Below are positions 9,685 to 63,321 of a DNA stretch of 64,000 nucleotides, piece after piece. The notes beneath the pieces were generated by a model, which did not search any database, had not been told where the DNA came from, and was given only the letters and a program-made list of their open reading frames with translations. A program made the translations under genes and the position numbers. Each line of letters begins with the position of its first letter. Position 1 is the first letter of the stretch. Source of the stretch: a virus; IMG/VR virus record IMGVR_UViG_3300050821_005528, positions 1 to 64,000 of that record; one strand, written 5' to 3'.

Positions 9685-9706
9685 CCCGCTCTAGGACAAT
9701 GAATCC

Positions 9707-13033: not shown

Positions 13034-13106
13034 CCTCTGCCGGCGTTGCTTCAAGGCGGAATGCGACAGGAACCGATTGAATGGCATCGGCGACGGCACA
13101 CGGTAA
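12903..13106 (+). CDS. small zinc-ribbon protein (67 aa)
   Basis: CVKCGRS...(22 aa)...CRRCF gives two CxxC pairs. Third-position GC is visibly higher than in the overlapping frame. Confidence 0.45.
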   Translation: MPSKTSAGKRKALRKRPTCVKCGRSIIAFRPGWQSLYRPSRDHDLCRRCFKAECDRNRLNGIGDGTR

Positions 13107-13112
13107 AAACTA

Positions 13113-20817: not shown

Positions 20818-20853
20818 TCAAATGGCTGCACGCGATCTTGAAGGAGGCGGTCC

Positions 20854-21057
20854 ATGGCTGATATCCTCGCGCCGCTTCATGTGCTGGTGCGGTTCGGCGA
20901 AGCCATTCCGGCGAGCGTGCAGGGTGTGGCGCTGCTGGATTTTGAGCGCAGTATCCGGGCGCAATCCGGGCTTCGTGTCGAGGTGTTCAAAGAGGCCAAG
21001 GGCGATGATTCAAAGCTGCGCAGCGCCATGACGGCGCAACAGAGGGCGAAGCTGTGA
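20854..21057 (+). CDS. hypothetical protein (67 aa)
   Basis: Strong RBS GAAGGAGGCGGTCC followed by ATG. Confidence 0.55.
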   Translation: MADILAPLHVLVRFGEAIPASVQGVALLDFERSIRAQSGLRVEVFKEAKGDDSKLRSAMTAQQRAKL

Positions 21058-28572: not shown

Positions 28573-29220
28573 GTGTCCCTGCCGATCGTCGTCACCTACA
28601 ATCTCGCGGCTGCGGTCTCGACGAACATCGTCAACGTCGCGCCGATCCAGGGTCCAGGCATTCTGCCGCTCATCACCACGACCGGCGTGAGCCTCGATAC
28701 GCAGCGTCGCCTGCTCGTCACCACGACCGGAAACGAAAGCAGCAACACGTTCACCGTCAAGGGTACGAACCTCGCGGGATTTCCGATCACGGAGGTCATC
28801 ACGGGGCCAAATGCCTCAACGACGCAATCAAACCTCGATTTCAAGACGGTGCTGAGCATCACGGCGCTGGCGACGACGGCGGGAACGACATCGTTCGGCA
28901 CGGACGGCACGGGTTCGACGCCGTGGTATATCATGAACTGGCATGCGACGCCCACGAACATCGCGCTGTCGGGCGTGGTGACGAGTTCCAACACGACCGT
29001 CACATGGGGTGCGCAATATACCTATGATGATCCGAACAATCTGCCGGCCGGTGTTCTATTTCCCAATCCATTTCCGCATCCGGTGCTCAACGGCATTGCC
29101 GGCACCTCGTCGGTCGATGGCACGATCAACGATCCGGTGACGGCGATCAGGTTCATCGTGACGGCGGGGACCGGAACCATTCGCGGGACCATCATACAGG
29201 CGGGGATCGGATCGCCATGA
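28573..29220 (+). CDS. Thr/Ser-rich virion structural protein (215 aa)
   Basis: RBS AAGGAG followed by GTG. Confidence 0.6.
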   Translation: MSLPIVVTYNLAAAVSTNIVNVAPIQGPGILPLITTTGVSLDTQRRLLVTTTGNESSNTFTVKGTNLAGFPITEVITGPNASTTQSNLDFKTVLSITALATTAGTTSFGTDGTGSTPWYIMNWHATPTNIALSGVVTSSNTTVTWGAQYTYDDPNNLPAGVLFPNPFPHPVLNGIAGTSSVDGTINDPVTAIRFIVTAGTGTIRGTIIQAGIGSP

Positions 29221-29609
29221 AATCATTATCGACATTGTTCTGGCTGGTCGCGACGATCATCGTGCTCGGCGGCGGTCCGGCGCTCAATCAGCAGCGGGTC
29301 GCAACTACCGTGTCGGCACCCTCCGGGGCATTGACGCTTGCGAGCGGAGCGACCGCGCAGACGTTGTTCAACGCCAACGAAGTCATCAACGGCTGCGCCA
29401 TCATTAATCCGCTCACGGCGACGGAGCAGGGCATCGGCGCTGCGGAATCCATCACGATCTCGTTCATCACCACGGCGGTGGCGGGCGGCGGGCGGCCGAC
29501 ATCGATCCTCGAAGCCGGTCAGGCGATTGCGTGTCCGCAAGGGCTGACGCAGCCGGTGTCATGGATCGCGACGACCACGAGCCACGCAATCAACGTCGTG
29601 AAATGGTGA
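29217..29609 (+). CDS. protein with N-terminal hydrophobic segment (130 aa)
   Basis: ATGA overlap. Starts MKSLSTLFWLVATIIVLGGG. Confidence 0.55.
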   Translation: MKSLSTLFWLVATIIVLGGGPALNQQRVATTVSAPSGALTLASGATAQTLFNANEVINGCAIINPLTATEQGIGAAESITISFITTAVAGGGRPTSILEAGQAIACPQGLTQPVSWIATTTSHAINVVKW

Positions 29610-50891: not shown

Positions 50892-51076
50892 TTGCTTGCT
50901 CCGTTCCTGATGTACGGAGATTAGCATATTTCTTTAATGGGTCAAGAAAGCAATCGAACTATCTCAATCACGAAATGTTACAGCCTCTCCCACCCTTGCA
51001 CGGTTGCCCGTTCCGATTCACAATCGCCCGCAACTGATTCGGTCTCGTGAGCGGAAACGGCATCCGTACTGGTAGT

Positions 51077-51124
51077 TTTAATTCAGGAGGACGCACCGCT
51101 TGCTGGCTCTATCCTGCCATCATC
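51077..51124 (-). promoter_or_regulatory. bipartite recurrent element, copy 6 (minus strand: GATGATGGCAG, 26-nt spacer, CCTGAATTAAA)
   Basis: Back-to-back with copy 7. It points to the leftward block (start 50891, 186 nt away). Confidence 0.55.
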
Positions 51125-51148
51125 GTTCTATGATAGGCGAACCCACCC

Positions 51149-51185
51149 GATGATCGCACGTAACCCCAAATCTCTCCTGAATTGG
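51149..51185 (+). promoter_or_regulatory. bipartite recurrent element, copy 7 (GATGATCGCAC, 16-nt spacer GTAACCCCAAATCTCT, CCTGAATTGG)
   Basis: The box1 ATG is the start codon of CDS 51150. Box2 reads TGG where other copies read TGA, so translation continues. Confidence 0.65.
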
Positions 51186-51554
51186 CTCTATCTTCTCGCC
51201 GCCTCCATCCTCATCTTCTATGGGGCAACCCGAGCCTTCGCCTTCGACAACGGCCAATATGGTGATGTCCCCGACAATATCCGTTCATGGTTCAAGGGCG
51301 TTCATTCGCCCAACGGAGTCCCTTGCTGTGATATAGCCGACGGCCACCGCACCACTTGGGAAAAGCATCCCGGCGATGACCGTTACTGGGTTCCGATCGA
51401 AACCGAATGGTTTCCCGTGCCATCCGAAGCCGTCATCCACAACGCCGGCAATCCGACCGGAGAGGCCGTCGTCTGGTACGTCATGAAGGATGCGACGGCG
51501 CCGTTTCCGGGGAAATATCACATCCGGTGCTTTGTGCCCGGAGAGGGAGTTTAA
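51150..51554 (+). CDS. secreted protein (134 aa)
   Basis: Signal-peptide-like LLNWLYLLAASILIFYGATRAFA followed by FDNG. Contains a CC pair. Confidence 0.6.
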   Translation: MIARNPKSLLNWLYLLAASILIFYGATRAFAFDNGQYGDVPDNIRSWFKGVHSPNGVPCCDIADGHRTTWEKHPGDDRYWVPIETEWFPVPSEAVIHNAGNPTGEAVVWYVMKDATAPFPGKYHIRCFVPGEGV

Positions 51555-51556
51555 TT

Positions 51557-52240
51557 ATGCTTCAACCCGTGATGTTCGATTGCAACCACGACAACGCCAT
51601 CGATTGGGACGCGGTAGCGACCTGGGCCTGGGGATGTTCGCTCAAGGTGAACCAGGGACTCGGGATGACCGACCACACCTTCGCGTCGCGCCGCGCCGAG
51701 GCCGAGAAGCGCGGCATCATGGTCGGCGGCTACGACTTCTCGACCGACGATAACGTGGCCGCGAATGTGGCGCGCTATCTAGGCCTCCTCAATCCCGGCC
51801 CGACGACGCAAGCCGATTTGGACTTCGAAGACCTGACGCACCACGCCATGTCGGGCGACCATGCATACGAATGGCTCGATCGCGTCAACCAGAAGATGGG
51901 GCGCGCGGCCACGCTCTACGGCGGCAACCGCATCCGCGAGCACATTCGCTCCCAGGATAAGAAATGGATTGATATGGCGGCCGTCACGCCGCTGTGGCTG
52001 TGTCAGTACAAGGACGTTCAGGTAGACACGCTGGACGAGCTGGACCGGCACATCAGCGTGCCGCCACCGTGGAAGCGCTGGACCTATCTGCAGTACGCGG
52101 CGGACGGCGCTGGTCCCGCTCCGCACAAGATGCCGGGCGTCGAAAACAAGGCGGACCTGAACGTGTACCGGGGCGACCGCGCGACGTTCGCGGCGGGGTG
52201 GCCCGGGGCGTCGCTGCCAGCGCCGGAGGCGGTCGCGTGA
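51557..52240 (+). CDS. GH25-family lysozyme (muramidase) endolysin
   Basis: FDCNHDNAIDWDAV...KVNQGLGMTDHTF...GIMVGGYDF...LWLCQYKD...WTYLQYAADG...ADLNVYRG follows the GH25 pattern (DxS..qg.idw, KateG, GaYhf, WlaqY, WqYs, DlN.f). Confidence 0.8.
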   Translation: MLQPVMFDCNHDNAIDWDAVATWAWGCSLKVNQGLGMTDHTFASRRAEAEKRGIMVGGYDFSTDDNVAANVARYLGLLNPGPTTQADLDFEDLTHHAMSGDHAYEWLDRVNQKMGRAATLYGGNRIREHIRSQDKKWIDMAAVTPLWLCQYKDVQVDTLDELDRHISVPPPWKRWTYLQYAADGAGPAPHKMPGVENKADLNVYRGDRATFAAGWPGASLPAPEAVA

Positions 52241-52245
52241 TGACC

Positions 52246-52264
52246 GCGAGCGACGGGCGCTCGC
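52246..52264 (+). terminator. 7-bp-stem GC hairpin after the lysozyme gene (GCGAGCG acggg CGCTCGC)
   Basis: Direct reading. No U-tract. Confidence 0.2.
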
Positions 52265-52285
52265 ATAGACACTGATGAGGCCGTG

Positions 52286-52558
52286 ATGTTTTTTAGACTG
52301 ATCGGCGCTGCGGCGCTCGCCCTGGCACTCATAGGAACCGCGTGGACGCAGGGTATCCCCGGCGGGGGCGGCCCCGGCATACCAACGGCGAACTTTTGTT
52401 TCTTGTTTTTCAATCCCGGGATTCCGGGATGCCCTGGACCTGGCATGCCAGGCGTTAACCCCAACCCGGGACCGCCGCCGACCAACTGTTCGCCCGTTAA
52501 TGGTCTCGATTACACCAAGGCGTGCGATGTGGTCTACCATATGGGGATTTTTCAATGA
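52286..52558 (+). CDS. small secreted Gly/Pro-rich protein, tandem paralogue A
   Basis: Signal peptide, and C-terminus CSPVNGLDYTKACDVVYHMGIFQ. Confidence 0.55.
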   Translation: MFFRLIGAAALALALIGTAWTQGIPGGGGPGIPTANFCFLFFNPGIPGCPGPGMPGVNPNPGPPPTNCSPVNGLDYTKACDVVYHMGIFQ

Positions 52559-52773
52559 GGGTGCTTTTAGCCGCCATCCTTGTGCTTGCCGCCTCTGAAG
52601 CTTCACCGCAAACAACTTTGCTCGGAAATTGCGGTTCCGATATCACGGGAATACAGTTGAGCACGGGGAACGTCTACTGCGTCGCACCGCCGCCAGGAGC
52701 GTGCTCTCCTGTCGATGGCCTTGACTACACCAAAGCATGCGATATCGTTTATCACACGGGGATTTTTCAATGA
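52555..52773 (+). CDS. small secreted protein, tandem paralogue B
   Basis: MRVLLAAILVLAASEA, and C-terminus CSPVDGLDYTKACDIVYHTGIFQ. ATGA overlap. Confidence 0.55.
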   Translation: MRVLLAAILVLAASEASPQTTLLGNCGSDITGIQLSTGNVYCVAPPPGACSPVDGLDYTKACDIVYHTGIFQ

Positions 52774-53006
52774 GGATAATTCTGCTTGGTACTGCTATGC
52801 TCTTCTCGACGGCTGTTTACTGCGCTGATGTCGTCGTGGTGTTCGATGAACCGTTGCAGCGCGATATGATCGCCGTTCTGAATGCGGCCAAAGCTCAAGG
52901 ACTCGACCTTGCGGCTCCAGTCGGGCGCGTGTGGGAAAAACTCAAAGCCGCACCTGTGCTCAAACCCGATCCGCCGCCGCCCGCTCCATCGGAGAAACCA
53001 CAATGA
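52770..53006 (+). CDS. small secreted protein (78 aa)
   Basis: MRIILLGTAMLFSTAVYCADV. ATGA overlap. Pro-rich C-terminus. Confidence 0.5.
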   Translation: MRIILLGTAMLFSTAVYCADVVVVFDEPLQRDMIAVLNAAKAQGLDLAAPVGRVWEKLKAAPVLKPDPPPPAPSEKPQ

Positions 53007-54253
53007 AGAAACTTATCGCAGGACTTGCGCTCTCGCTGCTGGCAACAGCCGCATTCGCGGGTGCCGGGACCATAACGGTGCTCGACAGTACTGGCGCAAC
53101 CAAAACATACGATGTCATCACGGACGGATCGGGCAATTTCCTGTCCAAGATGGGCATCTGCGATGGAGCGGCGGGGGCCACTTGCGCTTCGGTTGGTACG
53201 GCAGGGTCCCCCTCCACCAACGCTCTCACGGTGCAAGCGGTGACGCTGGGGCACGGCACGGCCGCCAATGCGATGCGGGTGGAGCTGCCCACGGACGGGA
53301 CGGGCGTTGTTACGGCGGCCCAAGCGACCGCTGCCAATCTCAATGCGACGGTGGTCGGCACCGGCACATTCGCCACGCAATCGACTTTGGCGGCCGAAAC
53401 GACAAAGAACATCGGAACTATTCGCGCCACCGGCAACGTTGGCGGCGTCTTCGATGCGATCGTGGCTGGCACCTATCCGGCGAACGCGCTTGCTGTTGGC
53501 GTGCTCAACGGCAGCGCCATCGGCCGGCTGGTAGGCGACGAAACCAACGGCCTGTGGGTCAACATCAAGGCCGGTGCGGGTTCGGGCGGTACGGCGCTTG
53601 CTGACGAGGCCACGTTCACGCAGGGTACAACCAACTTCACCCCGGCCGGTTGCACCTTCAACAATTCGATCACGAACCTGACGAGCGGCCAGGGTGGCGC
53701 ATTCTCCTGCACAGCGGCCCGCTCGTTGCACACGACGGTCGATAACACCAACGCCAACGGCCAAGCCGCGATGGCGAACAGTTCGCCTGTCGTGATCGCG
53801 AGCAATCAATCAAATATTCCTACGAATACGGCTCAAATTAATGGCGTCACACCGTTGATGGGAAATGGCGTTAGCGGTACTGGATCGCAGCGCGTCAACA
53901 TCGCTTCCGATAATACCGCATTTCCAGTCAACGCAACCGGCCCCGTGAACGTAACAGCTACAGCGTGTTCTGGGACGATCACGAGCGGCGGCACCGCACA
54001 GAATGCTTTCACCGCGCAAACGACTTTGCACGGCTTCACGGTCGCCAACATCGACACAACCGAACCGCTATGGATTTCGTTTACTACTACCGCTGCGGCG
54101 AGCGGCACGGATAGCTACCCTCTCCCAGCCGCAACCGCGACAACCTTCGCGGGTTTTGGCTCGTTCACGACGCCGCCTGGGTTAGGACTTAACCACGCAC
54201 TATCCGTCATTGCGGCGACAACCTCACACAAGTATAGCTGTACATGGTGGTGA
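53003..54253 (+). CDS. secreted Thr/Ala/Gly/Asn-rich beta-rich protein (416 aa)
   Basis: Textbook Sec signal MKKLIAGLALSLLATAAFA followed by GAG. ATGA overlap. Confidence 0.7.
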   Translation: MKKLIAGLALSLLATAAFAGAGTITVLDSTGATKTYDVITDGSGNFLSKMGICDGAAGATCASVGTAGSPSTNALTVQAVTLGHGTAANAMRVELPTDGTGVVTAAQATAANLNATVVGTGTFATQSTLAAETTKNIGTIRATGNVGGVFDAIVAGTYPANALAVGVLNGSAIGRLVGDETNGLWVNIKAGAGSGGTALADEATFTQGTTNFTPAGCTFNNSITNLTSGQGGAFSCTAARSLHTTVDNTNANGQAAMANSSPVVIASNQSNIPTNTAQINGVTPLMGNGVSGTGSQRVNIASDNTAFPVNATGPVNVTATACSGTITSGGTAQNAFTAQTTLHGFTVANIDTTEPLWISFTTTAAASGTDSYPLPAATATTFAGFGSFTTPPGLGLNHALSVIAATTSHKYSCTWW

Positions 54254-54257
54254 GAAA

Positions 54258-54752
54258 ATGCCCAAAAATAATAGATGGTTTCCTATTGGAGCGGTGCTGC
54301 TACTTCTTTCTTTCCTGCATCCGCTCTACGCGCAATGGGGTGGGGGCGGCGGTGGAACGGTAAATAACAGTAGCACCGCCGCTAGCACCAATCGCGCGCT
54401 ATGCTCGATCCGCGCCGCCAATTTCAACATTACCACCGATCAGGCCTGCGTCATCCCCGGCACCGTCACCGCCTGGGTTCCGACCTCGATCATAGTCACC
54501 AATTGCTCCGGGAGCTTCACGCTTGCTGCCGGTGGCGTCTATCCGGCTGCCAGTAAGGGCGGCACGGCGCTGGTGGCCGCCGGCCAAGTCTACACGGCGC
54601 TGAGCGGATCAACCGTGGTGCTGGGGCTCACGCTCGCGGCCAACATCGCGACGACGCGGCAGACAGCGGGTACAGTTTACCTGTCGCTGACGACTGGGAC
54701 GGGATCGGCGGCAACCTGCGATTTCTATGTATGGGGAAACGACCTGACATGA
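54258..54752 (+). CDS. secreted protein (164 aa)
   Basis: Signal FPIGAVLLLLSFLHPLYA followed by QW. Gly run. Confidence 0.6.
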   Translation: MPKNNRWFPIGAVLLLLSFLHPLYAQWGGGGGGTVNNSSTAASTNRALCSIRAANFNITTDQACVIPGTVTAWVPTSIIVTNCSGSFTLAAGGVYPAASKGGTALVAAGQVYTALSGSTVVLGLTLAANIATTRQTAGTVYLSLTTGTGSAATCDFYVWGNDLT

Positions 54753-55924
54753 AGCGCTTTCTTATTGCGGTAGCATTGCTATTGATAGCAGGTGAGGCGC
54801 CCGCGCAGTTTAATGGGTGTTCGGCTGGGTTCTGTGCGCCGGTTGTTAGCGGCGGCGGAAGCTGCACCATCAACAGCGTCAGTTTGGGCGGCAATACCTT
54901 CACGGGTGGCGCATCCAGCGGAACGGTTGTCGGAGCCATCACGGTCAGCACAAGCGGTACATGCGGCACCGACACTCTGAGCGTCACAGGCACGAATGCC
55001 AGTGATTTTCAGATTAGCGGGACCAATCTCGAAACCAATGGCGTGGTAGCGGGCGGAAGCTATAGCATTAATATTGTCGCGACAATATCCGGGGCAACGG
55101 GGTCGCCGTTCACGCAGGCGGAAGTAATTTGCGGTGCTGGTAGTCATGCGGCAACCTTTATCGCCCGCACCAGCGGCATGAGCAATACCGAGACGACGGC
55201 CTACTGCAATTTGATCAACGGCCTTGACACCGATAGTACCTACGCTCTGTTCGATGCGCTATATATATTCGCAACAAATACCACAACCACGGCCGATCTC
55301 AACCTCGTCAGCACCAATTTTACGCTCACTTCGCACGGCAGTTGCACATTTACCGCTGATCACGGATATACCGGCGACGGTTCTTCTTGCTATCTTGATA
55401 CCGGGCTTGATCCGCAATCATGTACAGGAGTGACATGTAATTTCGCCAACACAACCGCAATGCATGGCGTTTATGTGCTTACCAATAGCACTTCGACGCC
55501 AGGCGCGCCCGAAATTGACATTGGAGCAGTGAATGACTCCACAGTGTTCAACTATATTCTTCCTATATTTACTGATGGTAAAAGTTACTGCTCAATAAAT
55601 AGCACTTCAAACAACGGGCCTGTCACGGTCGGGAACACTGACGGCTCGTGGATGTGCGTCGGTAATTCGACCAATAGCGTGTTTTATAGAAACGGGTCGT
55701 CTATTGGTTCTGGCACGGCAAGTGCCGGTGCGGTTCCAAACGTCAATTATTACATCTTGGCAAGAAATGATTCCGGCTCCGGTGGTGGGAGTTCTCCTGC
55801 TGAATTTTCGCCTCATCAACTATCCGCAGCGTGGATTGGGCAGATGCCAAATAGCACGCAGGCGGCTAATATCCAATCTCGCATTAATACGTTCATGACT
55901 TCGCAAGGTATCAATACATATTGA
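54749..55924 (+). CDS. secreted Cys-containing protein (391 aa), possible lectin/LamG-like C-terminal half
   Basis: Signal MKRFLIAVALLLIAGEAPA followed by QF. ATGA overlap. Lower-GC 3' half. Confidence 0.65.
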   Translation: MKRFLIAVALLLIAGEAPAQFNGCSAGFCAPVVSGGGSCTINSVSLGGNTFTGGASSGTVVGAITVSTSGTCGTDTLSVTGTNASDFQISGTNLETNGVVAGGSYSINIVATISGATGSPFTQAEVICGAGSHAATFIARTSGMSNTETTAYCNLINGLDTDSTYALFDALYIFATNTTTTADLNLVSTNFTLTSHGSCTFTADHGYTGDGSSCYLDTGLDPQSCTGVTCNFANTTAMHGVYVLTNSTSTPGAPEIDIGAVNDSTVFNYILPIFTDGKSYCSINSTSNNGPVTVGNTDGSWMCVGNSTNSVFYRNGSSIGSGTASAGAVPNVNYYILARNDSGSGGGSSPAEFSPHQLSAAWIGQMPNSTQAANIQSRINTFMTSQGINTY

Positions 55925-55937
55925 CAGGGGGATTCTA

Positions 55938-56468
55938 ATGTTCAACCGTATCCTCATTAGCCTCGGCCTCTCGCTCATGCTGGTTCTGTCGCCTCTCGCG
56001 GCGACACAGAAATGGGTTGCCGGCGCACTCACGGGCTACAGCACGACGGTTTGCGGGGCCGAACTCAATTCCCTCGCGAACGGCGACTCGGTCCTGTGCG
56101 GCACTGCCGTCACGACCAACACCGATCTGTACGGCACCGCGTCGTTCACGTTCGGCTCCGTCACCACGATGGGCGGTTCGCCCTATGTGCAACTCGCGAT
56201 CTATCAACTTAACCAGGACGGCAGCACGTATGGAGATGGCACCTTTGCGTCTGCGGCTGCCGGCAGCCCCGCCGCTCAGTATCTCGTCAACTGCATCATT
56301 CCTGCGCCGGCAAGCGCCACGGCGGCGTTCAAGGGCGAGTGCGGCCCGTTCCCGCTGCCGCCGGGCACGTTCAAGTTCGTGCTCTATGATAACCTAAACA
56401 CCACTGGAAATGCCGCTTCCAGCGGCAACGCCGTCTATCTCAACACATGGAATTTCCAGATCAATTGA
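55938..56468 (+). CDS. secreted protein (176 aa)
   Basis: Signal MFNRILISLGLSLMLVLSPLAA followed by TQ. Confidence 0.6.
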   Translation: MFNRILISLGLSLMLVLSPLAATQKWVAGALTGYSTTVCGAELNSLANGDSVLCGTAVTTNTDLYGTASFTFGSVTTMGGSPYVQLAIYQLNQDGSTYGDGTFASAAAGSPAAQYLVNCIIPAPASATAAFKGECGPFPLPPGTFKFVLYDNLNTTGNAASSGNAVYLNTWNFQIN

Positions 56469-56475
56469 GGTCGTC

Positions 56476-57543
56476 ATGCTCAAATTCCTGACTGTCCTCT
56501 GGGTATTGCTTGCGCCGCTGCCGGCATGGTCGCAGGCCATGTTCGCGCCGTTCATGGCTGCAAGCAGCGCAAGCAACTCGGTCACGGGTGCGATCCCGTC
56601 AGCGCCCGCCGCATTTTATGGGCAAATCAAGCCGACCGGGCCGATCGAGCTTAATCGGCAATCCCCGTTCGCGCCACTGGTCTCGATGTACGACCGCGGC
56701 GACGGCGTTTACATCAATGGTGCTTACGGGAATGCGGCCGACAATGGGCCGACTTTCGCGACCTATAGCGGCGGCGCTTCGACCAGCGCGGGTTTTATTC
56801 AAGGCGTCAACAGCACGCCGCGTGGCACAGCCGGATTGTGGCCTGGGGCGAGCATCACCAATGGGTTCTCCGGCAATGGGCTCGGCGCTTGGATCGTCAC
56901 CGGGGTGGACACCGGAGGCGGCGTTCAGACCGGGCTCGATATCAACGCTGCAAGCAATCTGACGGCGCTCGCGGCCGGGGCCGGATACTCGGTTGCGGTC
57001 CAGGTCTATCGCGTTCCCGGCACCATATCGGCCGATTTCGAATGGTACGGCGGCCGCACTTGGATATCCAACGGGGAGGGGTGGGAACAAGCCAATTCCT
57101 GCGCGGCTCCCGGCGTGATGTGGGGGTTCGTGGAGAACGCCGGTTGTGGCGCTTCGGGAAATTATGTCGTCGGCGCCTATGTTGTCACGGGCACCGTCGC
57201 ATCGCCCACGCAAAAAACACTGGGCTCATTTACGATTGCCCCGAATGCCTATTACGAACTCGGCATTGATTGCGTCAACACCAGCAGCGGCAGCGCTTCC
57301 TGCGAATGGCTTATCAACTCCGCGGTTCAGAGTTGCAGCAGTTGCACCGGCCTGTCGCTGCCGTCCACGACCAATACCGGAGAGACGTGGATAGAGGCCG
57401 GCGCAACGCGGCATGCTAGCGGACTGAGCAATCACACCTGTTACTGCTATGTCTACAAGATCGATTTTTATTCGCGCAAGCTTTCTCTGAGCGAGTGGTC
57501 GTTCCGCTGGAATAACCCGTGGAGCATGTACAAGCCGAAGTGA
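56476..57543 (+). CDS. secreted protein (355 aa), possible concanavalin/LamG-like fold
   Basis: Signal MLKFLTVLWVLLAPLPAWS followed by QA. Confidence 0.65.
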   Translation: MLKFLTVLWVLLAPLPAWSQAMFAPFMAASSASNSVTGAIPSAPAAFYGQIKPTGPIELNRQSPFAPLVSMYDRGDGVYINGAYGNAADNGPTFATYSGGASTSAGFIQGVNSTPRGTAGLWPGASITNGFSGNGLGAWIVTGVDTGGGVQTGLDINAASNLTALAAGAGYSVAVQVYRVPGTISADFEWYGGRTWISNGEGWEQANSCAAPGVMWGFVENAGCGASGNYVVGAYVVTGTVASPTQKTLGSFTIAPNAYYELGIDCVNTSSGSASCEWLINSAVQSCSSCTGLSLPSTTNTGETWIEAGATRHASGLSNHTCYCYVYKIDFYSRKLSLSEWSFRWNNPWSMYKPK

Positions 57544-57586
57544 CGTTCCAAACGCCAGCGTTCCTATCGAGGTAAGGAGTGATATC

Positions 57587-57733
57587 ATGTGGTGGCTCGT
57601 GTGGGGAGGAAGTTTCCTCGTCATCGCGGTTCTGGCGATCGATAGTTACCTGGTCCGGGTGCTGCGGCTCCCGGTACCAAGCGAAAGCACGAAATGGGAG
57701 GCTCTTCGGGGCCTCCCCTCTTCCCGTAAATAA
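57587..57733 (+). CDS. 48-aa single-TM protein (holin/antiholin-like candidate)
   Basis: Strong RBS GGTAAGGAGTGATATC followed by ATG. Starts MWWLVWGGSFLVIAVLAIDSYLV. Confidence 0.45.
   Translation: MWWLVWGGSFLVIAVLAIDSYLVRVLRLPVPSESTKWEALRGLPSSRK
57696..57717 (+). terminator. hairpin GGGAGGC-tcttcggg-GCCTCCC inside the 3' end of the 48-aa ORF
   Basis: Perfect 7-bp GC-rich stem. Followed by a C/T-rich stretch rather than a U-run. Confidence 0.25.
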
Positions 57734-57746
57734 GGCGAGAAAGACC

Positions 57747-58526
57747 ATGACCAACCCCCACGGCGGCTACGGCTGGCGGCGTTCCCTGCCGGATCATCGC
57801 GACGCGCCTTTCACCGCCGCCCTCATGGCGCGGCTCCCCACGACGTTGCCTGCGCACCGAGACGACCGGGGCACCAAGTATATGCCCCCGGTCTACAACC
57901 AGGGCCAGACTTCGAGTTGCACCGGCAACGGCACGGCCGGCGCCTTACAGTACAGGCGCCGCAAGCAGGGCCTCCCTGATTTCATGCCGTCGCGAATGTT
58001 CATCTACTACAACGGCCGCGCCATCGACGGCACCACAAGCTTCGATGGTGGTTCTCAGGTCCGCAACGTCATCAAAGCAGTGGCGACTCAAGGCGCGTGC
58101 GATGAAACCGAGTGGCCGTTTCGGACCGACCAGATCAATATGCGCCCGACCGACAAATGCTATTTCGATGCCAAGACCGACCTCGTGACCGGCTACGCGG
58201 CCGTCCCGCAGAACATCGACGCCATCCGGGCCTGCATCGCAAGCGACACGCCCGTCGTGTTCGGCTTCACGGTATACCCGCAGTTCGAGTCAGACGCGAT
58301 GGCGCGTAGCGGCATGATGGAGATGCCGGGCGACAGCGACGCGCCGCTCGGCGGCCACTGTCCGCTGGCGTGCGGCTATAGCGATAAGAGCAGAGTGGTG
58401 ATCTGCCGGAACAGCTGGGGACCGGACTGGGCGGACGGGGGTTATTTTTATATGCCGTATGATTACATCACCAACCCCGGGCTCGCCGCTGACTTCTGGC
58501 AGATCGACGTGGTGACGGGGCGATGA
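57747..58526 (+). CDS. papain-like cysteine peptidase (family C1)
   Basis: Oxyanion Gln and catalytic Cys in VYNQGQTSSCTGNG. Catalytic His in PLGGHCPLACGY. Asn/Trp in CRNSWGPDWADGGYFYMPY. Confidence 0.85.
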   Translation: MTNPHGGYGWRRSLPDHRDAPFTAALMARLPTTLPAHRDDRGTKYMPPVYNQGQTSSCTGNGTAGALQYRRRKQGLPDFMPSRMFIYYNGRAIDGTTSFDGGSQVRNVIKAVATQGACDETEWPFRTDQINMRPTDKCYFDAKTDLVTGYAAVPQNIDAIRACIASDTPVVFGFTVYPQFESDAMARSGMMEMPGDSDAPLGGHCPLACGYSDKSRVVICRNSWGPDWADGGYFYMPYDYITNPGLAADFWQIDVVTGR

Positions 58527-58738
58527 CCTGCGCCCGCTATCTCAACGGCGGCAAGTGGTGCGACCTCGGACCTCAGCCCGACTTGACTTGGCTCTACCTG
58601 CTGGCCTGCATCGCCATGGTCGTCTGCGGTGGGTGCGACGCAGCCGATGCCGGATGGCGCTGCCATCCCGAGGGACGAAGCAAGGCGTTCCTGGAGTACC
58701 GCAGGGCGTACCATGATCCGGGGCTCAGACTCAGATGA
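58523..58738 (+). CDS. small Cys-rich membrane protein (71 aa)
   Basis: ATGA overlap. Contains LTWLYLLACIAMVVCGGC. Confidence 0.45.
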   Translation: MTCARYLNGGKWCDLGPQPDLTWLYLLACIAMVVCGGCDAADAGWRCHPEGRSKAFLEYRRAYHDPGLRLR

Positions 58739-59265
58739 TCCGCCTACGCTTCGTCACCGGCGACGACTGGATATCCAACGCCATCCGCATCGGCGAGCGC
58801 GACGGATGGTGCACGCATGTCGAAGCCGTGATGCCAGACGGGACACTTCTCGGCGCGCATCTCGATGGCGGCGTGCAGGCGCGGCCGGCGGGTTACGATA
58901 AGGGGAAGGCGACGCGCGAGTTGATCGTGGACCTACATGAGGAGAACTGCTTCGGCGCGTTGTCGGTCGGGACTCCGCAGGATGTCGCCGCGCAGCAATG
59001 CCGCGAGAGCTTCTATGATTTCCTGCGCGCCCAACTCGGCAAACCGTATGATCTCACGGCCCTCGCCGGCGCCGCATTCGATCGCGACTGGCACCGCGCT
59101 GACTCCTGGTTCTGTAGCGAGTTGATTTCCGCCGCGCTTGAGCATTGCGGTTATCTCCATTCGCTCGCCGCCATCGACAGTCATATATCGCCGCGAGACC
59201 TGTTATTGGTGTTAAGTGGACGAATCGCGATTCCCAACATGGCAGGCGTTTCGCTGACGACATAG
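58735..59265 (+). CDS. permuted papain-fold (YiiX/C92- or NlpC/P60-like) hydrolase
   Basis: His precedes Cys: WCTHVEAVMPDG...GVQARP...DSWFCSELISAAL. ATGA overlap. Confidence 0.6.
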   Translation: MIRLRFVTGDDWISNAIRIGERDGWCTHVEAVMPDGTLLGAHLDGGVQARPAGYDKGKATRELIVDLHEENCFGALSVGTPQDVAAQQCRESFYDFLRAQLGKPYDLTALAGAAFDRDWHRADSWFCSELISAALEHCGYLHSLAAIDSHISPRDLLLVLSGRIAIPNMAGVSLTT

Positions 59266-59274
59266 GAGCGCGGA

Positions 59275-59586
59275 ATGGACGAAGGTGAGCAATGGTTAAA
59301 CGATCAGATGCCGGGAATCTACGCCGAAGTTCCCGAGGTGGTGCGAGAAATCTTCGCGCGCATCCCCTATGGACAGGAATTCACGCTAAGTAACGGCCGC
59401 GTCGGTCGTTTCAAAAAATTCATTGAACCTCGTCAAAACGACGGCAAATGGGAGTTCGGATTCGACATTGTATTTGACAAAGGATCGCCAGACCACCTTG
59501 AGTTTTTTGTGAAGCACACAGGAGGCGGCGGATTAGTGGCAGTGCCAACCGTGCCAATCGTAGAATTTTCATCGACCGCGAGCTGA
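59275..59586 (+). CDS. hypothetical protein (103 aa), low-GC; possible cognate inhibitor/immunity
   Basis: The function is a guess from adjacency only. Confidence 0.5.
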   Translation: MDEGEQWLNDQMPGIYAEVPEVVREIFARIPYGQEFTLSNGRVGRFKKFIEPRQNDGKWEFGFDIVFDKGSPDHLEFFVKHTGGGGLVAVPTVPIVEFSSTAS

Positions 59587-59596
59587 GGAACAATCT

Positions 59597-60031
59597 ATGG
59601 CCTTTGATATCTCTCCCTATCTATCGAGTGGACGCAACGTCGTGAGCGCGATTGCCGGAGTTGCCCTCGGCGTCGGGATTACATCGGTCGGCGGCGTCTC
59701 GACCGGCGATCTGGTTGCTGGCTTTGATCATATCTTCAAGGGCCTCAATGAAATCGCGATCGGCGTGGGAATCATCGCCCCGGCCGCAATGAGTGCATGG
59801 GCCTTTGCCAAAGGGCGGCTATCGTCCAAGGTCGCCGACGTGCATGCCGCTGCCCCGCATGAGCTTGTGAGCGCCGTCAACCAGGTGGACCATCCGCAAC
59901 TCGTGGCGGCCGTCGCCCGGGTCTCGCCTGCCACACTCGTCAACGCCGCTGCCGAGCTTCCATCGGTTCAACAGATCATCGCCACCCCGGCGATGGAGAA
60001 AGCAACCGCGAGCCAAAAGGTGGTCTCGTAA
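59597..60031 (+). CDS. two-TM holin-like protein
   Basis: VVSAIAGVALGVGITSVGGV and IAIGVGIIAPAAMSAWAFA, followed by a hydrophilic tail. Confidence 0.5.
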   Translation: MAFDISPYLSSGRNVVSAIAGVALGVGITSVGGVSTGDLVAGFDHIFKGLNEIAIGVGIIAPAAMSAWAFAKGRLSSKVADVHAAAPHELVSAVNQVDHPQLVAAVARVSPATLVNAAAELPSVQQIIATPAMEKATASQKVVS

Positions 60032-60048
60032 GAAAGAAGGAAAACACC

Positions 60049-60501
60049 ATGTCCGGTTCAGGATTGATGGATTTTCTTATCGTCGTCGTTGGACTCTGCA
60101 TTATTGTCGGAATGATTTTTGCCGCGTTGGAGTTCATCTCGCCCGATGTCAGGTTTAAGACAATTGCGCGATATGCTGTCGGAGGCGCCGCGCTCTTGGC
60201 GTTTCTGGTGGCAATCAAGAACGTGCTATTCGGCGGCAGTGGCGCTGGTGTGGCGATTTCCCCCGTTGGCGTGATCGAGTTCGCTATTGGTATCATCGTG
60301 ATACTGGTGGTGCTTTTCATCATCTTTTGGGCGTTGGATTTCTTTGCGCCATCGGCAGGATTCCTTGTTCCGATCAAATATGTCATCGGCGCTATTGCTC
60401 TGATCGCTATCCTGGTGGTGGCGGAACAGGTGCTGTTCGGAGGCGGATTGATGCGGGGCGGCGGCATATCGTTCCTACCGCACCAGCAGCCGACGAGATA
60501 A
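60049..60501 (+). CDS. four-TM membrane protein with internal duplication
   Basis: The two halves align: MDFLIVVVGLCIIVGMIFAALEFISP...IARYAVGGAALLAFLVAIKNVLFGG versus IEFAIGIIVILVVLFIIFWALDFFAP...IKYVIGAIALIAILVVAEQVLFGG. Confidence 0.65.
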   Translation: MSGSGLMDFLIVVVGLCIIVGMIFAALEFISPDVRFKTIARYAVGGAALLAFLVAIKNVLFGGSGAGVAISPVGVIEFAIGIIVILVVLFIIFWALDFFAPSAGFLVPIKYVIGAIALIAILVVAEQVLFGGGLMRGGGISFLPHQQPTR

Positions 60502-60505
60502 CGCC

Positions 60506-60619
60506 ATGGGTCTGATCCTTCTTGTTATCGTTGTTCTCGTCCTGTTCGGCATAGGACACTTTGGTGCAGCGACCGGCCGACCGATGATCGCACATAACCC
60601 CGGCTCTCTCCTGAATTGA
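60506..60619 (+). CDS. 37-aa single-TM peptide ending in the recurrent-element mini-ORF
   Basis: MGLILLVIVVLVLFGIGHFGAATGRPMIAHNPGSLLN. Confidence 0.35.
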   Translation: MGLILLVIVVLVLFGIGHFGAATGRPMIAHNPGSLLN

Positions 60620-60620
60620 A
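60583..60620 (+). promoter_or_regulatory. bipartite recurrent element, copy 8 (GATGATCGCAC, 16-nt spacer ATAACCCCGGCTCTCT, CCTGAATTGAA)
   Basis: Ends 11 nt before ATG 60631. Confidence 0.65.
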
Positions 60621-60630
60621 AGAACTTCTC

Positions 60631-61302
60631 ATGAAACTATTCCCCATCCTCACCGCGCTTCTACTTACCGCCACGGCAGCACAAGCGCAGAATCCGCGAC
60701 CACGCCCCGAAGCCGCGCCACGCTTCGATCATACCGACGAGCCACGCGAGGGCGCGGTGGGCTTGACGCCCCTCATCTGCGATCCGCTCAATCTGCTCCC
60801 TGGCTGCAAGAGCCCCGTCACAGGCCAAACCGTCACGTCCGATGCCAGCAAGGCCATCACCCAGGTATTCACGAGCCTCGCCGCATTCATCGATCAGGGC
60901 GTGGTGGAAGCCGAACAGCTTGCCATGGCGATTCCCGATCTGCCCGATGGCGTGGGCCAACAGTGCTGGATGCAGATGCGCAAGACATCAGCCGTGTTCA
61001 AGGCACATCCGGTGCCGGTCACGCTCCAACTACCGCTCGATCTCCAGGCGATCCGCCTGTTGGTGATGTCGGCCAACGACCTGTGCGCCAGCTCGGCGTG
61101 CACGCAGCTTTTCTCGGATGCCGCCAACCTCGCGACCGCAGCGGCTGGCGCCGGGGGGTTTTCGATCCCAATCCCCAGCCTCGCGAGCGTGTGCAGCAAG
61201 ATTCCGGTGATCCGCTCCACCCCGACCGTGGCCGACCCGACGCTCCCGCCGGTTACGCCGGTGCCCGTCGTGCCGGCGCCTGCACCAACGCCGCCTCCGT
61301 AA
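60631..61302 (+). CDS. secreted protein with Pro-rich C-terminus (223 aa)
   Basis: Start moved to ATG 60631. Signal MKLFPILTALLLTATAAQA followed by QN. Confidence 0.6.
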   Translation: MKLFPILTALLLTATAAQAQNPRPRPEAAPRFDHTDEPREGAVGLTPLICDPLNLLPGCKSPVTGQTVTSDASKAITQVFTSLAAFIDQGVVEAEQLAMAIPDLPDGVGQQCWMQMRKTSAVFKAHPVPVTLQLPLDLQAIRLLVMSANDLCASSACTQLFSDAANLATAAAGAGGFSIPIPSLASVCSKIPVIRSTPTVADPTLPPVTPVPVVPAPAPTPPP

Positions 61303-61880
61303 TGGTCAAGCCTGCGTCCATCGTCGCGGCGCTGTGGCTAGCCCTTGCCAGCGCAGCGCCGGCCCAGGCGCCGCCCCCCGCGGTATCGCCTCCGGTACAG
61401 ACCCAGCCATATATCGCTCCGACGCTGCCTGACCTACCGCGAGGGCTCAGTTCGGGCGACCGCGAGCTGATCCTGCTGCTGGTCGCCGAGCGCGACCGAC
61501 AATACAACCAGCGCTTCCATGCCCAGGAGATCGCGGTCGCCGCCGCCCTGGCCGCTGCCAAGGAAGCCGTCGCCGCCGCGCTCACCGCTGCCAAGGAGGC
61601 CGTGGACAAGGCCGCCGCAGCCAACGACAAGCATTTCGACAGTGTAAACGAATTCCGCAAGACCTTGACCGATCAGACAGCTTCATTCCCGACCCGCAAT
61701 GAGGTAGATATCAAGTTCAAGGCGATCGAGGACAAGATCGGTCTCCTCATCACGCGCGACAACCAACTGGCAGGACGCAGCGAAGGATACTCGTCACTGT
61801 GGAACGGGATCATAGCAATCATCGGCGTCTTGATCGGCGGCGGCATGCTGGCGATGGCCTTTCGACAAAGGGGAAAGTGA
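61302..61880 (+). CDS. envelope protein with N-terminal signal, coiled-coil and C-terminal TM anchor
   Basis: ASIVAALWLALASAAPAQA, then an AAALAAAKEAVAAALTAAKEAV repeat, then IIAIIGVLIGGGMLAMAF. Confidence 0.55.
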   Translation: MVKPASIVAALWLALASAAPAQAPPPAVSPPVQTQPYIAPTLPDLPRGLSSGDRELILLLVAERDRQYNQRFHAQEIAVAAALAAAKEAVAAALTAAKEAVDKAAAANDKHFDSVNEFRKTLTDQTASFPTRNEVDIKFKAIEDKIGLLITRDNQLAGRSEGYSSLWNGIIAIIGVLIGGGMLAMAFRQRGK

Positions 61881-61884
61881 TAAG

Positions 61885-62361
61885 ATGCCCAAAGTCTACG
61901 CCGTAATGATCATGGGCCAGGGTGGCTACCTCACTAGCTACGGCGTGGTCCGCATGGCCGCAGCGGCCCGTCAGCTCGGCATCCAGGCCGACGTATTCAC
62001 CTACGGCTCGACCGACGCCATCGCCGCCGCTGTGGACGCACACCGCACCACGGGCTACCTCATCGCCGGCTTGGGCTATTCGCTGGGCGTCTCGGCGCTG
62101 ACCTATGCGCAGCGCACCCGCATGTTCGATCTGGTGCTCTGCGTGGCCGGCAGCAAGCTTGGGCAGAATTACCCGATCAATCACGCCAAGACCACACGTT
62201 CCGTCCTGTGGCGCGGACCTGGCGTGCTGTCGGGCGCTGGCGGCGATCTTGGATTCGACGTGGTGCACGACGTAGCGGGAGCGCCGCACCTGTGGATGGA
62301 TTTTGCGCCGGAAGTGGCAAGTGGCGTAGAATCTGAGTTGAACGCACTTCTTCGGCGATGA
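61885..62361 (+). CDS. small GxSxG (alpha/beta-hydrolase-like) protein
   Basis: YLIAGLGYSLGVSAL is a nucleophile-elbow-like motif. At 158 aa it is short for a full alpha/beta-hydrolase. Confidence 0.45.
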   Translation: MPKVYAVMIMGQGGYLTSYGVVRMAAAARQLGIQADVFTYGSTDAIAAAVDAHRTTGYLIAGLGYSLGVSALTYAQRTRMFDLVLCVAGSKLGQNYPINHAKTTRSVLWRGPGVLSGAGGDLGFDVVHDVAGAPHLWMDFAPEVASGVESELNALLRR

Positions 62362-62403
62362 TGGCAAGGGAGAACGATATGGCAATCCCTCTCCTGAATT
62401 GAA
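62357..62403 (+). promoter_or_regulatory. bipartite recurrent element, copy 9 (GATGATGGCAA, 25-nt spacer, CCTGAATTGAA)
   Basis: Box1 overlaps the stop of 61885-62361. Mini-ORF MMARENDMAIPLLN (62358-62402). Confidence 0.6.
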
Positions 62404-62462
62404 TAAAGCTTCAAAGCGCGGAGCGGGACCTATTGATCCCGTTGGTTACAACTGAGGAAGCA

Positions 62463-62753
62463 ATGTCGCTGGTTCCGCAGGTCGACTTCGACTTTACCGC
62501 AGGGGATTTGATCAAGATCGTGGTCCTGGTGGTCGGGTGGGTCGTGACCATCGTCAAGATCGACGGGAGGTTGAAGAACGTCGAGAAGGAAATCAAGGAC
62601 GTTACGGCTCTGACCCGCTGGAAGGAGCGCATTGAGGAGCGGATCATCACCCAGCGCCGCGACATCGATGATCTGCGGCGGGGCCGCGGTTTCATCCGCA
62701 ACGGTGGTGTGAACGGAGAATATACCAAGGACGGAAAATTAGACGACCGCTAA
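62463..62753 (+). CDS. N-terminal TM plus coiled-coil protein (96 aa; i-spanin- or holin-like topology)
   Basis: ATG after GAGGAAG. LIKIVVLVVGWVVTIV followed by a charged helix. Confidence 0.5.
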   Translation: MSLVPQVDFDFTAGDLIKIVVLVVGWVVTIVKIDGRLKNVEKEIKDVTALTRWKERIEERIITQRRDIDDLRRGRGFIRNGGVNGEYTKDGKLDDR

Positions 62754-62781
62754 ACAGGCCTCGCCCACGGTCGGGCGCGCC

Positions 62782-63108
62782 CTACGTGTTGAGAGCGCGT
62801 GCGCGTTCCAAGAGTTCCTTAGCGCGGTCGATTGCCGCTCGCGCCAGGCGCAAACAATATTCCCGATCCGTCTCGCTGCCCTCTGACCATTTCCGCTTGA
62901 GATCGGGCGGGTAGTCATCCGTATAGCGCGCGTTGTGGATCGCTTCCGCCATCAGGTATAGATCGGTGCCATCATCCATGCCGGCCTGATGGCATGCCTC
63001 CAAGGCAGCACGAAGGCGTTCAATCTCCCCAACAAATTCTTCACGCGTCGGACTGCTGTGTGCGCTGTGCCGCATGTGAAGCCGGTAGCGCTCGATGATG
63101 TCCGACAT
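62782..63108 (-). CDS. hypothetical protein (108 aa)
   Basis: Converges on 62463-62753. Confidence 0.55.
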   Translation of the reverse strand: MSDIIERYRLHMRHSAHSSPTREEFVGEIERLRAALEACHQAGMDDGTDLYLMAEAIHNARYTDDYPPDLKRKWSEGSETDREYCLRLARAAIDRAKELLERARALNT

Positions 63109-63123
63109 TGCGGGCGTCCGCTG

Positions 63124-63321
63124 TTATCGAAGGTGAAGGAAGGAACCGAGCGTGGCGTCGAGCGCTTTCGTCGGTTCGCGCTTCACATTCAGTTGGTGAT
63201 AGATTCTGATCGTTACGTTGTTCACGATCGCTGCCCGCGTCGCTTCCGAGAGACCCGGAGCGCCAACCTTCAAGGCGTGCTCGAAGGCGCCTCGCACGAC
63301 CTCTAGCTCGTATGTCGTCAT
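63124..63321 (-). CDS. hypothetical protein (65 aa)
   Basis: Start at the internal ATG (MTTYELEV). Confidence 0.45.
   Translation of the reverse strand: MTTYELEVVRGAFEHALKVGAPGLSEATRAAIVNNVTIRIYHQLNVKREPTKALDATLGSFLHLR

Follow-up and report, generated by a model that had tools for sequence, protein, structure and literature searches.

A replaceable cassette of predicted exported, cysteine-paired proteins within the lysis region of an uncultured tailed phage

The stretch of DNA analysed here (hereafter the window) comprises 64,000 nucleotides (nt) of the IMG/VR record IMGVR_UViG_3300050821_005528, a tailed soil phage from a metagenome, and our subject is a block of 22 genes (g01-g22) at positions 51150-62753. 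All 22 genes lie on the + strand and end in stop codons without internal stops, and an independent gene call on the identical public contig (ENA ERZ27253567, L001) returned the same genes with the same starts, which bears out the 22-gene rightward block described in a first-pass annotation made from the sequence alone. The block forms a separate + strand cluster with - strand genes at either side. That annotation had also taken the block to be phage-borne and much larger than a holin-endolysin-spanin cassette, and both points held; its treatment of the block as a single system did not, as comparison with a close relative (L022) and a mosaic base composition instead separate a lysis backbone from an inserted, swappable cassette. 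This cassette, g03-g10 (52286-57543, + strand), encodes predicted exported proteins and is inserted just after the endolysin gene. We propose that the block would represent the late 'envelope' region of a tailed phage, with backbone and cassette as its two nested parts.

To call signal peptides we used a heuristic rule of our own (not SignalP), which asks for a positively charged n-region, an uncharged eight-residue core with a mean Kyte-Doolittle hydropathy of at least 1.9 and an AxA-type cleavage site at positions 14-36. Genes starting at 51150, 52286, 52555, 52770, 53003, 54258, 54749, 55938, 56476, 60631 and 61302 passed this rule. With g21, which is probably a false positive, 12/22 genes of the block pass, compared to 3/67 in the rest of the window (Fisher p = 8e-7), one of those three being the terminase. 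Membrane proteins were called from at least one window of 19 residues with a Kyte-Doolittle mean of at least 1.6, and all six candidates, at 57587, 58523, 59597, 60049, 60506 and 62463, contained one. These 11 signal peptides and six membrane proteins match the first-pass count of 17 among the 22 products that begin with a signal peptide or a transmembrane segment.

The genes of the block are closely spaced. The ATGA-overlap junctions already remarked on number six, four of them inside g03-g08; one further junction is TAATG, and the largest gap is 101 nt. Because of these overlaps and a gap of 45 nt between the endolysin gene and g03, the arrangement suggests that the cassette is expressed with the lysis genes. 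As first reported, the five large proteins are rich in Thr, Ser, Gly and Asn, with an S+T+G+N+A fraction of 0.50-0.60. GC content at third codon positions (GC3) is mosaic across the block, with g04, g05, g08, g15 and g18 lying 3.4-3.9 standard deviations (SD) below the genome mean. A gene finder based on the difference between GC3 and second-position GC (GC2) chose antisense open reading frames (ORFs) over 52286-55924 and so mis-called g03-g08, because Thr/Ser/Gly/Ala-rich proteins raise GC2; composition-based callers may mis-annotate genes for exported proteins of this kind.

Within the cassette, g03 (52286..52558) encodes a 90-amino-acid (aa) Gly/Pro-rich protein with a predicted export signal, and g04 (52555..52773) a 72-aa predicted exported protein with low GC3. 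The two are tandem paralogues with a 74-nt repeat in common (window positions 52487-52775), which encodes the C-terminus ...C.PV(N/D)GLDYTKACD.VYH.GIFQ together with the ATGA junction; a small g04-like protein also opens the cassette of L023, one of several other phage contigs described below. The next gene, g05 (52770..53006), encodes a 78-aa predicted exported protein with a single cysteine, and a small g05-like protein is found directly before the g06-type gene in L027 and L029. It is followed by g06 (53003..54253), whose 416-aa predicted exported product is fibre-like, and by g07 (54258..54752), which encodes a 164-aa predicted exported protein and travels with g06-type genes, being 75% identical beside such a gene in L004, L008 and L028. 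Downstream lies g08 (54749..55924; 391 aa, predicted exported, GC3 z=-3.9). The last two genes, g09 (55938..56468; 176 aa, predicted exported) and g10 (56476..57543; 355 aa, predicted exported), go together in that g09 is always paired with g10, as in L023 and L024. The g10 family is very rare, with 5 members among 5.8 billion proteins when the query's own cluster is included. A by-eye suggestion that g10 is LamG-like went unsupported, as profile-profile comparison against the lectin fold of g08 returned a probability of 6%.

Two independent features of the homologues bear on export. Canonical signal peptides were found in 4/4 homologues of g10 and, by a looser rule, in 125/150 top matches of g06; the strict rule found them in 163/197 g06-family and 64/83 g08-family matches, and they persist across homologues at 40-60% identity. 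Among signal-bearing members, the number of cysteines in the mature part was even in 157/161 g06-type proteins (p ~1e-41) and 59/63 g08-type proteins (p ~7e-14), compared to 17/40 among the other proteins of the window. In the block itself, mature parts contain four cysteines in g03, g04, g07 and g09, six in g06 and g19, eight in g10, twelve in g08 and one in g05. Given the conserved signal peptides and even cysteine counts, the cassette proteins are predicted to be translocated and cleaved, and to be disulfide-bonded proteins that fold outside the cytoplasm; the earlier claim that the large proteins carry cleavable signals thus gains support from their relatives.

At its N-terminus g06 has a conserved beta-hairpin motif; a T/A/G-rich middle of low complexity follows, and the protein closes with a C-terminal jellyroll of 105 aa, also conserved and ending CTWW. 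Its family comprises 2,281 clusters at 50% identity (E<=1e-3), in which the N-terminal parts differ widely in length and the C-terminal domain of ~105 aa is 70-90% identical, ending ...HKFSCTWW. An AlphaFold2 (AF2) model of g06 was confident only for this C-terminal domain (residues 311-416, predicted local distance difference test (pLDDT) >90), which it rendered as a beta-sandwich jellyroll. Foldseek against PDB matched the domain to generic jellyrolls (Ena spore-appendage subunits, PirA, cupins, CBM6) at E ~1e-3, and its neighbours among viral models were uncharacterised proteins of uncultured phages. Chaperone-usher or Ena-like pilus assembly was considered and set aside, as neither an usher nor a chaperone was present and the structural resemblance is weak.

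A paralogue of the g06 domain is encoded at 29217..29609 (+), within the structural operon of this same phage. It is 130 aa long with a hydrophobic N-terminus, aligns to g06 at 34% by blastp (hhalign probability 84%, E=8e-6), and lies just upstream of an SU10-type adaptor gene at 29716-30336, so assigned by its homology to L024. In L024 an exported-type g09-g10 pair occupies the slot equivalent to 29217-29609 of the window.

In g08, the signal peptide is followed by a QFNGCxxGFC motif, an Ig/cadherin-like repeat and a 260-aa C-terminal domain predicted to adopt a ConA-like lectin fold. The motif stands at the same place in L025, L028 and L029, and the C-terminal domain also occurs in stand-alone signal-peptide proteins of ~290 aa. 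The AF2 model of g08 had a predicted template-modelling score (pTM) of 0.71, with pLDDT >90 over residues 130-391. Foldseek with the C-terminal domain gave 91 PDB matches at E<=1e-3, the top-ranked all ConA-like lectin domains, including AbnA domain 4, a trans-sialidase lectin domain and the botulinum/tetanus toxin Hc (E 2e-7 to 1e-5). While g08 itself has no Pfam LamG sequence match, its homologue P0263 carries PF13385. Bacterial proteins contain tandem copies of the Ig/cadherin-like repeat, and P0263 has it fused to Laminin_G_3. The repeat also appears in a chromosomal bacterial gene pair (L030/L031, 9441-10843; a DUF4082 protein and a 280-aa protein) that sits among the housekeeping genes citrate synthase, metK, lnt, ybeY, phoH and miaB on a contig of ~500 kb, so this repeat domain, unlike the g06 domain, is common to cells. 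A scan of viral contigs with g08 yielded no confirmed relative.

For g03-g10 as a whole, no enzyme family of Pfam or PHROG was matched, and sequence searches of PDB chains with g06, g10 and g14 returned nothing useful. Of the roles offered in the first-pass annotation, a depolymerase found no counterpart, as neither a depolymerase nor any other catalytic domain turned up in g03-g10, while its adhesin-like option is in keeping with the modelled lectin fold of g08 and jellyroll of g06.

We compared the block with that of L022, a close relative in IMG/VR (52.5 kb). The two phages have g02 (90% identity), g14 (91%), g16 (53%), g19 (96%) and g21 (83%) in the same order, and g15, g17 and g18 are missing from L022. 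Between its endolysin gene and g14, however, L022 carries 7.5 kb of different signal-peptide genes (99, 878, 114, 88, 404, 302 and 444 aa), whose products showed no similarity to g03-g10 by blast; by eye, one of them has the short GICD motif of g06. From this comparison and the mosaic GC3, we take g01-g02 and g11-g22 to be a conserved backbone and g03-g10 a replaceable cassette.

Related genes recur in a range of positions in other phages, and the neighbours of g06-type and g10-type genes were phage genes in every context examined. In the BPP-1-like podoviruses L025/L026 and L028, runs of signal-peptide genes lie between the capsid/decoration genes and the adaptor gene. The run in L029 follows a Mu-F-like gene and includes a TIG protein and a faint pectate-lyase-like match, and that in L027 follows the fibre genes and includes a Peptidase_S74 fibre protein with a signal peptide. 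In L023 the run is directly upstream of the terminase and a P22-type portal, in L024 it is next to the SU10-type adaptor, and in the 137-kb phage L128 it surrounds a GH108 endolysin and a g14 homologue. L025 and L028 retain the g06 C-terminal domain at 76-88% identity, while the portal and capsid regions of these two phages have no similarity to the structural proteins of the window. Judged by this conservation beside dissimilar portals and capsids, the cassette is portable between virion types without mutual similarity, and it is probably independent of the virion. The L025 cassette also contains a 369-aa polytopic membrane protein with at least six segments (8879-9988) and a 282-aa protein with a twin-arginine-type signal, TRRSLL (12507-13355).

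Outside such viral contigs, the g06 family was hard to find. A scan of 185,579 bacterial and archaeal species-representative genomes for near-exact copies of two motifs from its C-terminal domain found no relative, though such a scan may miss divergent members. From 50,697 deposited phage records, tblastn retrieved two matches and no more, both of them weak and partial and both in uncultured environmental Caudoviricetes. On these searches and the gene neighbourhoods above, the family is confined to phages. When the same 50,697 records were searched for near-identical DNA with the block and the structural region of the window, no match came up.

The terminase of the window, searched against the same species-genome collection, gave 174 loci. 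Its nearest genome-borne relative (59%) is on L048 (CAIZGQ010000073.1), a 67,107-bp contig binned in a metagenome-assembled genome (MAG) of an uncultured member of the Rhizobiales; others, at 50-54%, are in genomes of Rhizobiales and of Rhizobium lusitanum, some on large contigs that are probably chromosomal (prophage-like). Because the closest genome-borne terminase relatives are from Rhizobiales, the host probably belongs to that order. L048 is close in size to the longest public contig carrying the proteins of the window phage (67,531 bp), and is possibly the complete genome of a related phage.

The backbone begins with g01 (51150..51554), a 134-aa protein that would be exported or N-terminally anchored according to the signal-peptide heuristic. 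Homologues of g01 were found on 11 viral contigs, and the family recurs in other phages beside genes for lysis: both L027 and L043 have it just before a holin-like gene (in L027, Phage_holin_10, with GH108 downstream). The following gene, g02 (51557..52240), encodes a GH25 muramidase, the endolysin, assigned by Pfam PF01183 (E=1e-10; 42.5 bits against a cut-off of 27; 171 of 180 profile positions) and by PHROG endolysin families; it had no PDB sequence match at E<=0.01. It has no signal peptide, so as a cytoplasmic endolysin it would need a holin.

Beyond the cassette, g11 (57587..57733) encodes a 48-aa single-pass membrane protein and g12 (57747..58526) a xylellain-like C1A cysteine peptidase without signal peptide or prodomain. 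The latter scored 50.8 bits against Pfam PF00112 (cut-off 20.7) and aligned over its full length to PDB 3OIS (E=1e-52), with the catalytic Cys, His and Asn conserved and the motifs SSCTGNG, GGHCPL and RNSWG aligned with the corresponding motifs of 3OIS; in L024 a PG_binding_1 protein is encoded close to a g12 homologue. The deposited name of 3OIS is 'Cysteine protease', and we take it to be xylellain of Xylella fastidiosa. Apart from its setting, phage-borne and among lysis-type genes, g12 resembles xylellain in alignment and triad alike.

Next come g13 (58523..58738), a 71-aa membrane protein with six cysteines, and g14 (58735..59265), a conserved 176-aa protein of phrog_1128. The g14 product is possibly a permuted papain-fold (YaeF-like) amidase. 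Its match to NCBIfam YaeF (NF008552) is below threshold (E=0.002, 17.3 bits against a cut-off of 279, over 42 residues only), and it had no Pfam match at E<=5 and no PDB match with a profile; H28 and C127 (FCSEL), with His before Cys, are invariant in six homologues. One of these homologues, in L128, is close downstream of the GH108 endolysin with a single 66-aa gene between. Thus, of the four hydrolase folds first proposed for the block, GH25 and the C1 peptidase stand with Pfam scores above cut-off, whereas the permuted-papain amidase has only its sub-threshold YaeF match and the GxSxG protein, g21 (61885..62361; 158 aa, with a G-Y-S-L-G motif), belongs to no family we could find: it had no Pfam, PHROG or NCBIfam match, and alpha/beta-hydrolase membership did not follow from the motif.

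The remaining backbone genes are small. g15 (59275..59586) encodes a 103-aa soluble protein with low GC3, g16 (59597..60031) a 144-aa holin candidate with two membrane segments, and g17 (60049..60501) a 150-aa protein with four membrane segments and a weak homologue in L036. The 37-aa membrane ORF g18 (60506..60619) is of uncertain reality, its final 12 codons being part of a recurrent DNA element described below. g19 (60631..61302) encodes a 223-aa predicted exported protein with a Pro-rich C-terminus, and g20 (61302..61880) a 192-aa protein with a putative signal peptide, a helical, Ala-rich repeat region that by eye looks coiled-coil, and a C-terminal membrane anchor, a topology that is spanin-like but without a lipobox. 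The last gene, g22 (62463..62753), encodes a 96-aa i-spanin-like or holin-like protein whose N-terminus holds a membrane segment and whose tail is highly charged. Pfam (E<=5) and NCBIfam (E<=0.1) gave nothing meaningful for g01, g08, g10, g16, g17 and g19-g22. By topology alone g11, g13, g16, g17, g18 and g22 are holin candidates, with no match to a holin family, and no credible lipobox ORF was present in any + frame of 51000-63200, so that an o-spanin or u-spanin of the canonical type is lacking. This lack and the C1 peptidase are the only unusual traits of an otherwise ordinary lysis backbone.

The recurrent element noted in the first-pass annotation has the core CTCTCCTGAATTG, which occurs in exactly four copies, all on the + strand, at 6825, 51172, 60606 and 62389 (0/100 shuffles reach this count), with near copies at 49305 (+) and 46849 (-). 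The match extends to ~47 nt at 6793, 51140 and 60574. Three copies were correctly placed in the block: the first (51140..51186, +) is at its head and overlaps the g01 start codon and first 12 codons, the second (60574..60620, +) is 11 nt upstream of g19 and covers the end of g18, and the third, a short one (62389..62412, +), is upstream of g22. A 10-mer of the core is inverted at 51080-51089, so that the pair brackets the block start. All copies are at intergenic or gene-boundary sites of non-structural transcription units, and none is in the structural region. A structured RNA was considered and rejected, as the copies had no common fold and the window no Rfam match. Each + strand copy also has one frame that reads ...LLN-stop after an ATG, except at g01, where TGA has become TGG and the ORF continues; non-synonymous variation in this frame speaks against a leader peptide and for a DNA-level site. 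The element is probably such a regulatory site, a promoter or operator, and would divide the block into g01-g18, g19-g21 and g22.

What might the cassette do? In the mechanism that we put forward, the backbone would breach the envelope through the exported g01, the GH25 endolysin, the C1 peptidase, the possible YaeF-like amidase, g19 and the bitopic g20, and its six small membrane proteins would supply holin or spanin candidates. The eight cassette products would cross the inner membrane by Sec, be cleaved by signal peptidase I and fold with disulfide bonds in the periplasm, yielding fibre-like, lectin-like binders rather than enzymes. These could bind envelope glycans at about the time the infected cell lyses, on the cell itself as well as on its debris, and so occupy or mask the receptors that the phage and its competitors use. 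Receptor interference of this kind would block superinfection and keep new particles from being wasted on dead cells. We hold this reading, of g03-g10 as exported glycan-binding proteins that act independently of the virion to occupy or mask receptors at the envelope around lysis, as a tentative first choice, possible and short of probable. It infers a binding target and a biological role from the observed export signals, paired cysteines, two folds, hypervariability, portability and restriction to phages. A virion-independent role is favoured because the conserved modules recur in phages with dissimilar virion genes and no virion-specific docking domain was identified.

Several points weigh against it. 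The signal peptides rest on a heuristic of our own. The receptor-inactivating proteins that it would resemble, Llp of T5 and Cor, are small lipoproteins encoded singly and made early, whereas the cassette has eight products that are large, late and non-lipidated. Masking the cell surface requires crossing the outer membrane, and no route is evident. In other phages, equivalent cassettes include domains that typify virion fibres (Collar, Peptidase_S74 and pectate-lyase-like), and the paralogue of the g06 domain is in the phage's own structural operon.

The last two points lead to the main alternative, in which the products are accessory receptor-binding fibres of the virion that need disulfide bonds, mature in the periplasm and join the particles when holin lesions merge the compartments at lysis. 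The fibre-like composition and the modular mosaics with conserved termini fit this account, and strict pairing of cysteines would explain why such fibres need export. In its favour are also the signal-peptide Collar, Peptidase_S74, TIG and pectate-lyase-like proteins of cassettes that other phages carry inside morphogenesis modules, and the occupation of the slot upstream of the adaptor by a g06-domain paralogue here and a g09-g10 pair in L024. Against it, the g06 C-terminal domain and N-terminal motifs are common to phages with dissimilar virion modules, with no virion-specific adaptor domain. The phage already has signal-less fibres, one with a Collar domain (33102-34067) and one whose match to an endosialidase beta-barrel (34079-36142; E=2.4e-4) is weak and short of the curated cut-off. 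Upstream of the cassette, 6 kb separate it from the last structural gene, and the N-termini of its products are signal peptides. The general understanding is that tailed phages both synthesise and assemble their virion proteins in the cytoplasm. We know of no precedent in tailed phages for virion fibres that mature in the periplasm, and our literature search found no description of exported phage fibres or of the cassette. We regard this account as unlikely, if a serious contender.

The cassette could instead be an accessory to lysis, its exported proteins working from the periplasm to help take apart a complex envelope, be it outer membrane, capsule or exopolysaccharide, and so standing in for the canonical spanins that the block lacks. 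In favour of this, the cassette of both the window and L022 has the endolysin gene directly on one side and other lysis-type genes on the other, signal-peptide genes are also near the GH108 endolysin of L128, and the block has no lipobox-bearing o-spanin or u-spanin gene. Such a role sits poorly with g03-g10 themselves, in which we detected no catalytic or membrane-active domain and whose folds are lectin and jellyroll; with content that is hypervariable between close relatives having a common lysis backbone; and with the cassettes of L023, L025 and L028, which are far from lysis genes. We consider it improbable.

Still less probable is that the genes are lysogenic-conversion morons, surface adhesins or exclusion factors expressed from a prophage to the benefit of the lysogen, as the first-pass annotation had offered among its options. 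The mosaic composition, variable insertion sites and putative promoter-like motif at the head of the block are compatible with morons; terminase relatives are found in Rhizobiales genomes, some on probably chromosomal contigs; and upstream of the block lie a BrxR-type winged-helix protein (by Pfam) and an XRE-type helix-turn-helix protein (by sequence inspection). This option is disfavoured by the lack of any match to the g06 family in the 185,579 genomes, though the terminase gave 174 loci there. No integrase was seen among the scanned ORFs, in a scan that was not exhaustive and with ~3.5 kb of the genome outside the window, and the genes are tightly packed with lysis genes. To an artefact, with chance hydrophobic N-termini or mis-called starts on cytoplasmic proteins, we give almost no credence: the heuristic nature of the rule, the failure of the GC3-based caller on g03-g08 and the g01 start inside a repeated DNA element invite the suspicion, but an independent gene call gave the same starts, homologues keep their signal peptides, and the even-cysteine bias (p ~1e-41) and the enrichment over the rest of the window (p = 8e-7) are extreme.

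Returning to receptor occupation, the closest known systems are Llp of T5 and Cor of phi80 and N15, exported proteins that inactivate the phage's own receptor, preventing superinfection and protecting progeny from debris. Both are single, small, early lipoproteins with genes beside those for receptor binding. The cassette is like them in encoding proteins exported to the envelope, on our predictions, but consists of eight genes for products of up to 416 aa, has signals of the signal-peptidase-I type with no lipobox and lectin- or fibre-like folds, is packed with lysis genes and has no sequence similarity to either. With lambda-type morons (lom, bor), which are exported envelope proteins of late operons with atypical composition, expressed singly by the lysogen, it has export, late-operon insertion and atypical composition in common; it differs in being multigenic and in that the motif scan did not find the g06 family in bacterial genomes. 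To our knowledge, the exported phage proteins described so far are products of single small genes.

Compared to tail fibres, the cassette proteins are similarly Thr/Ser/Gly/Asn-rich, modular and mosaic, with jellyroll- or lectin-like distal domains, but have predicted cleavable signal peptides and strictly paired cysteines, and no virion-adaptor N-terminus was identified. Set beside a holin-endolysin-spanin cassette, the block has the signal-less GH25 endolysin, small membrane proteins and an N-anchored, charged-tail protein (g22), but lacks a lipoprotein o- or u-spanin and adds further peptidases (C1 and the weakly YaeF-like candidate) and the interposed eight-gene exported cassette. The top PDB neighbours of the g06 jellyroll, Ena1B and Ena2A of Bacillus endospores (7A02, 9I0Y), are likewise Cys-bearing fibre subunits, but the match is weak (E ~1e-3, template-modelling (TM) score ~0.45) and generic for jellyrolls, and so a lead and not a membership. 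The nearest kinds to the cassette (Llp, Cor, Lom and Bor, and cytoplasmic tail fibres) match only part of its features.

There are thousands of cassette families, yet cultured phages and bacterial genomes have next to none of them, which points to an unstudied layer of phage-envelope interaction in soil. The broader proposal would be that soil phages carry a widespread, undescribed class of portable cassettes for Sec-exported, disulfide-bonded tail-fibre- or lectin-like proteins, new either as periplasm-matured fibres loaded at lysis or as receptor interference; we think it likelier to fail than to hold, with a real chance of being right. If true, either reading would alter the view of host range, superinfection exclusion and viral 'dark matter' proteins, and receptor interference would be the bacterial-virus counterpart of retroviral receptor interference, in which an exported receptor-binding copy saturates the receptor. 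Taken together, a signal peptide, an even cysteine count and a conserved C-terminal domain offer an easy way to recognise such cassettes.

Elsewhere in the window, the structural genes include the terminase (10696-12444), the portal (13113-15389), a Mu-gpT-like capsid protein (25740-26654) and ejection proteins (38333-45003). The early region encodes a DUF1937 protein (6376-6816) and an N6/N4 DNA methylase (7443-8201). In the middle of the morphogenesis region (18458-24893) are several large proteins of no assigned function and a match to a heptose kinase/adenylyltransferase family (19399-20817, phrog_7878), which hints at sugar-nucleotide chemistry or virion glycosylation. The final ~150 residues of a 1,247-aa ejection-type protein (41260-45003) match a domain common to several PHROG families, mostly of unknown function with a few annotated as endolysin, minor head protein or DarB-like antirestriction; the domain, which L036 has at 67% identity, could be a wall-degrading one carried by the virion.

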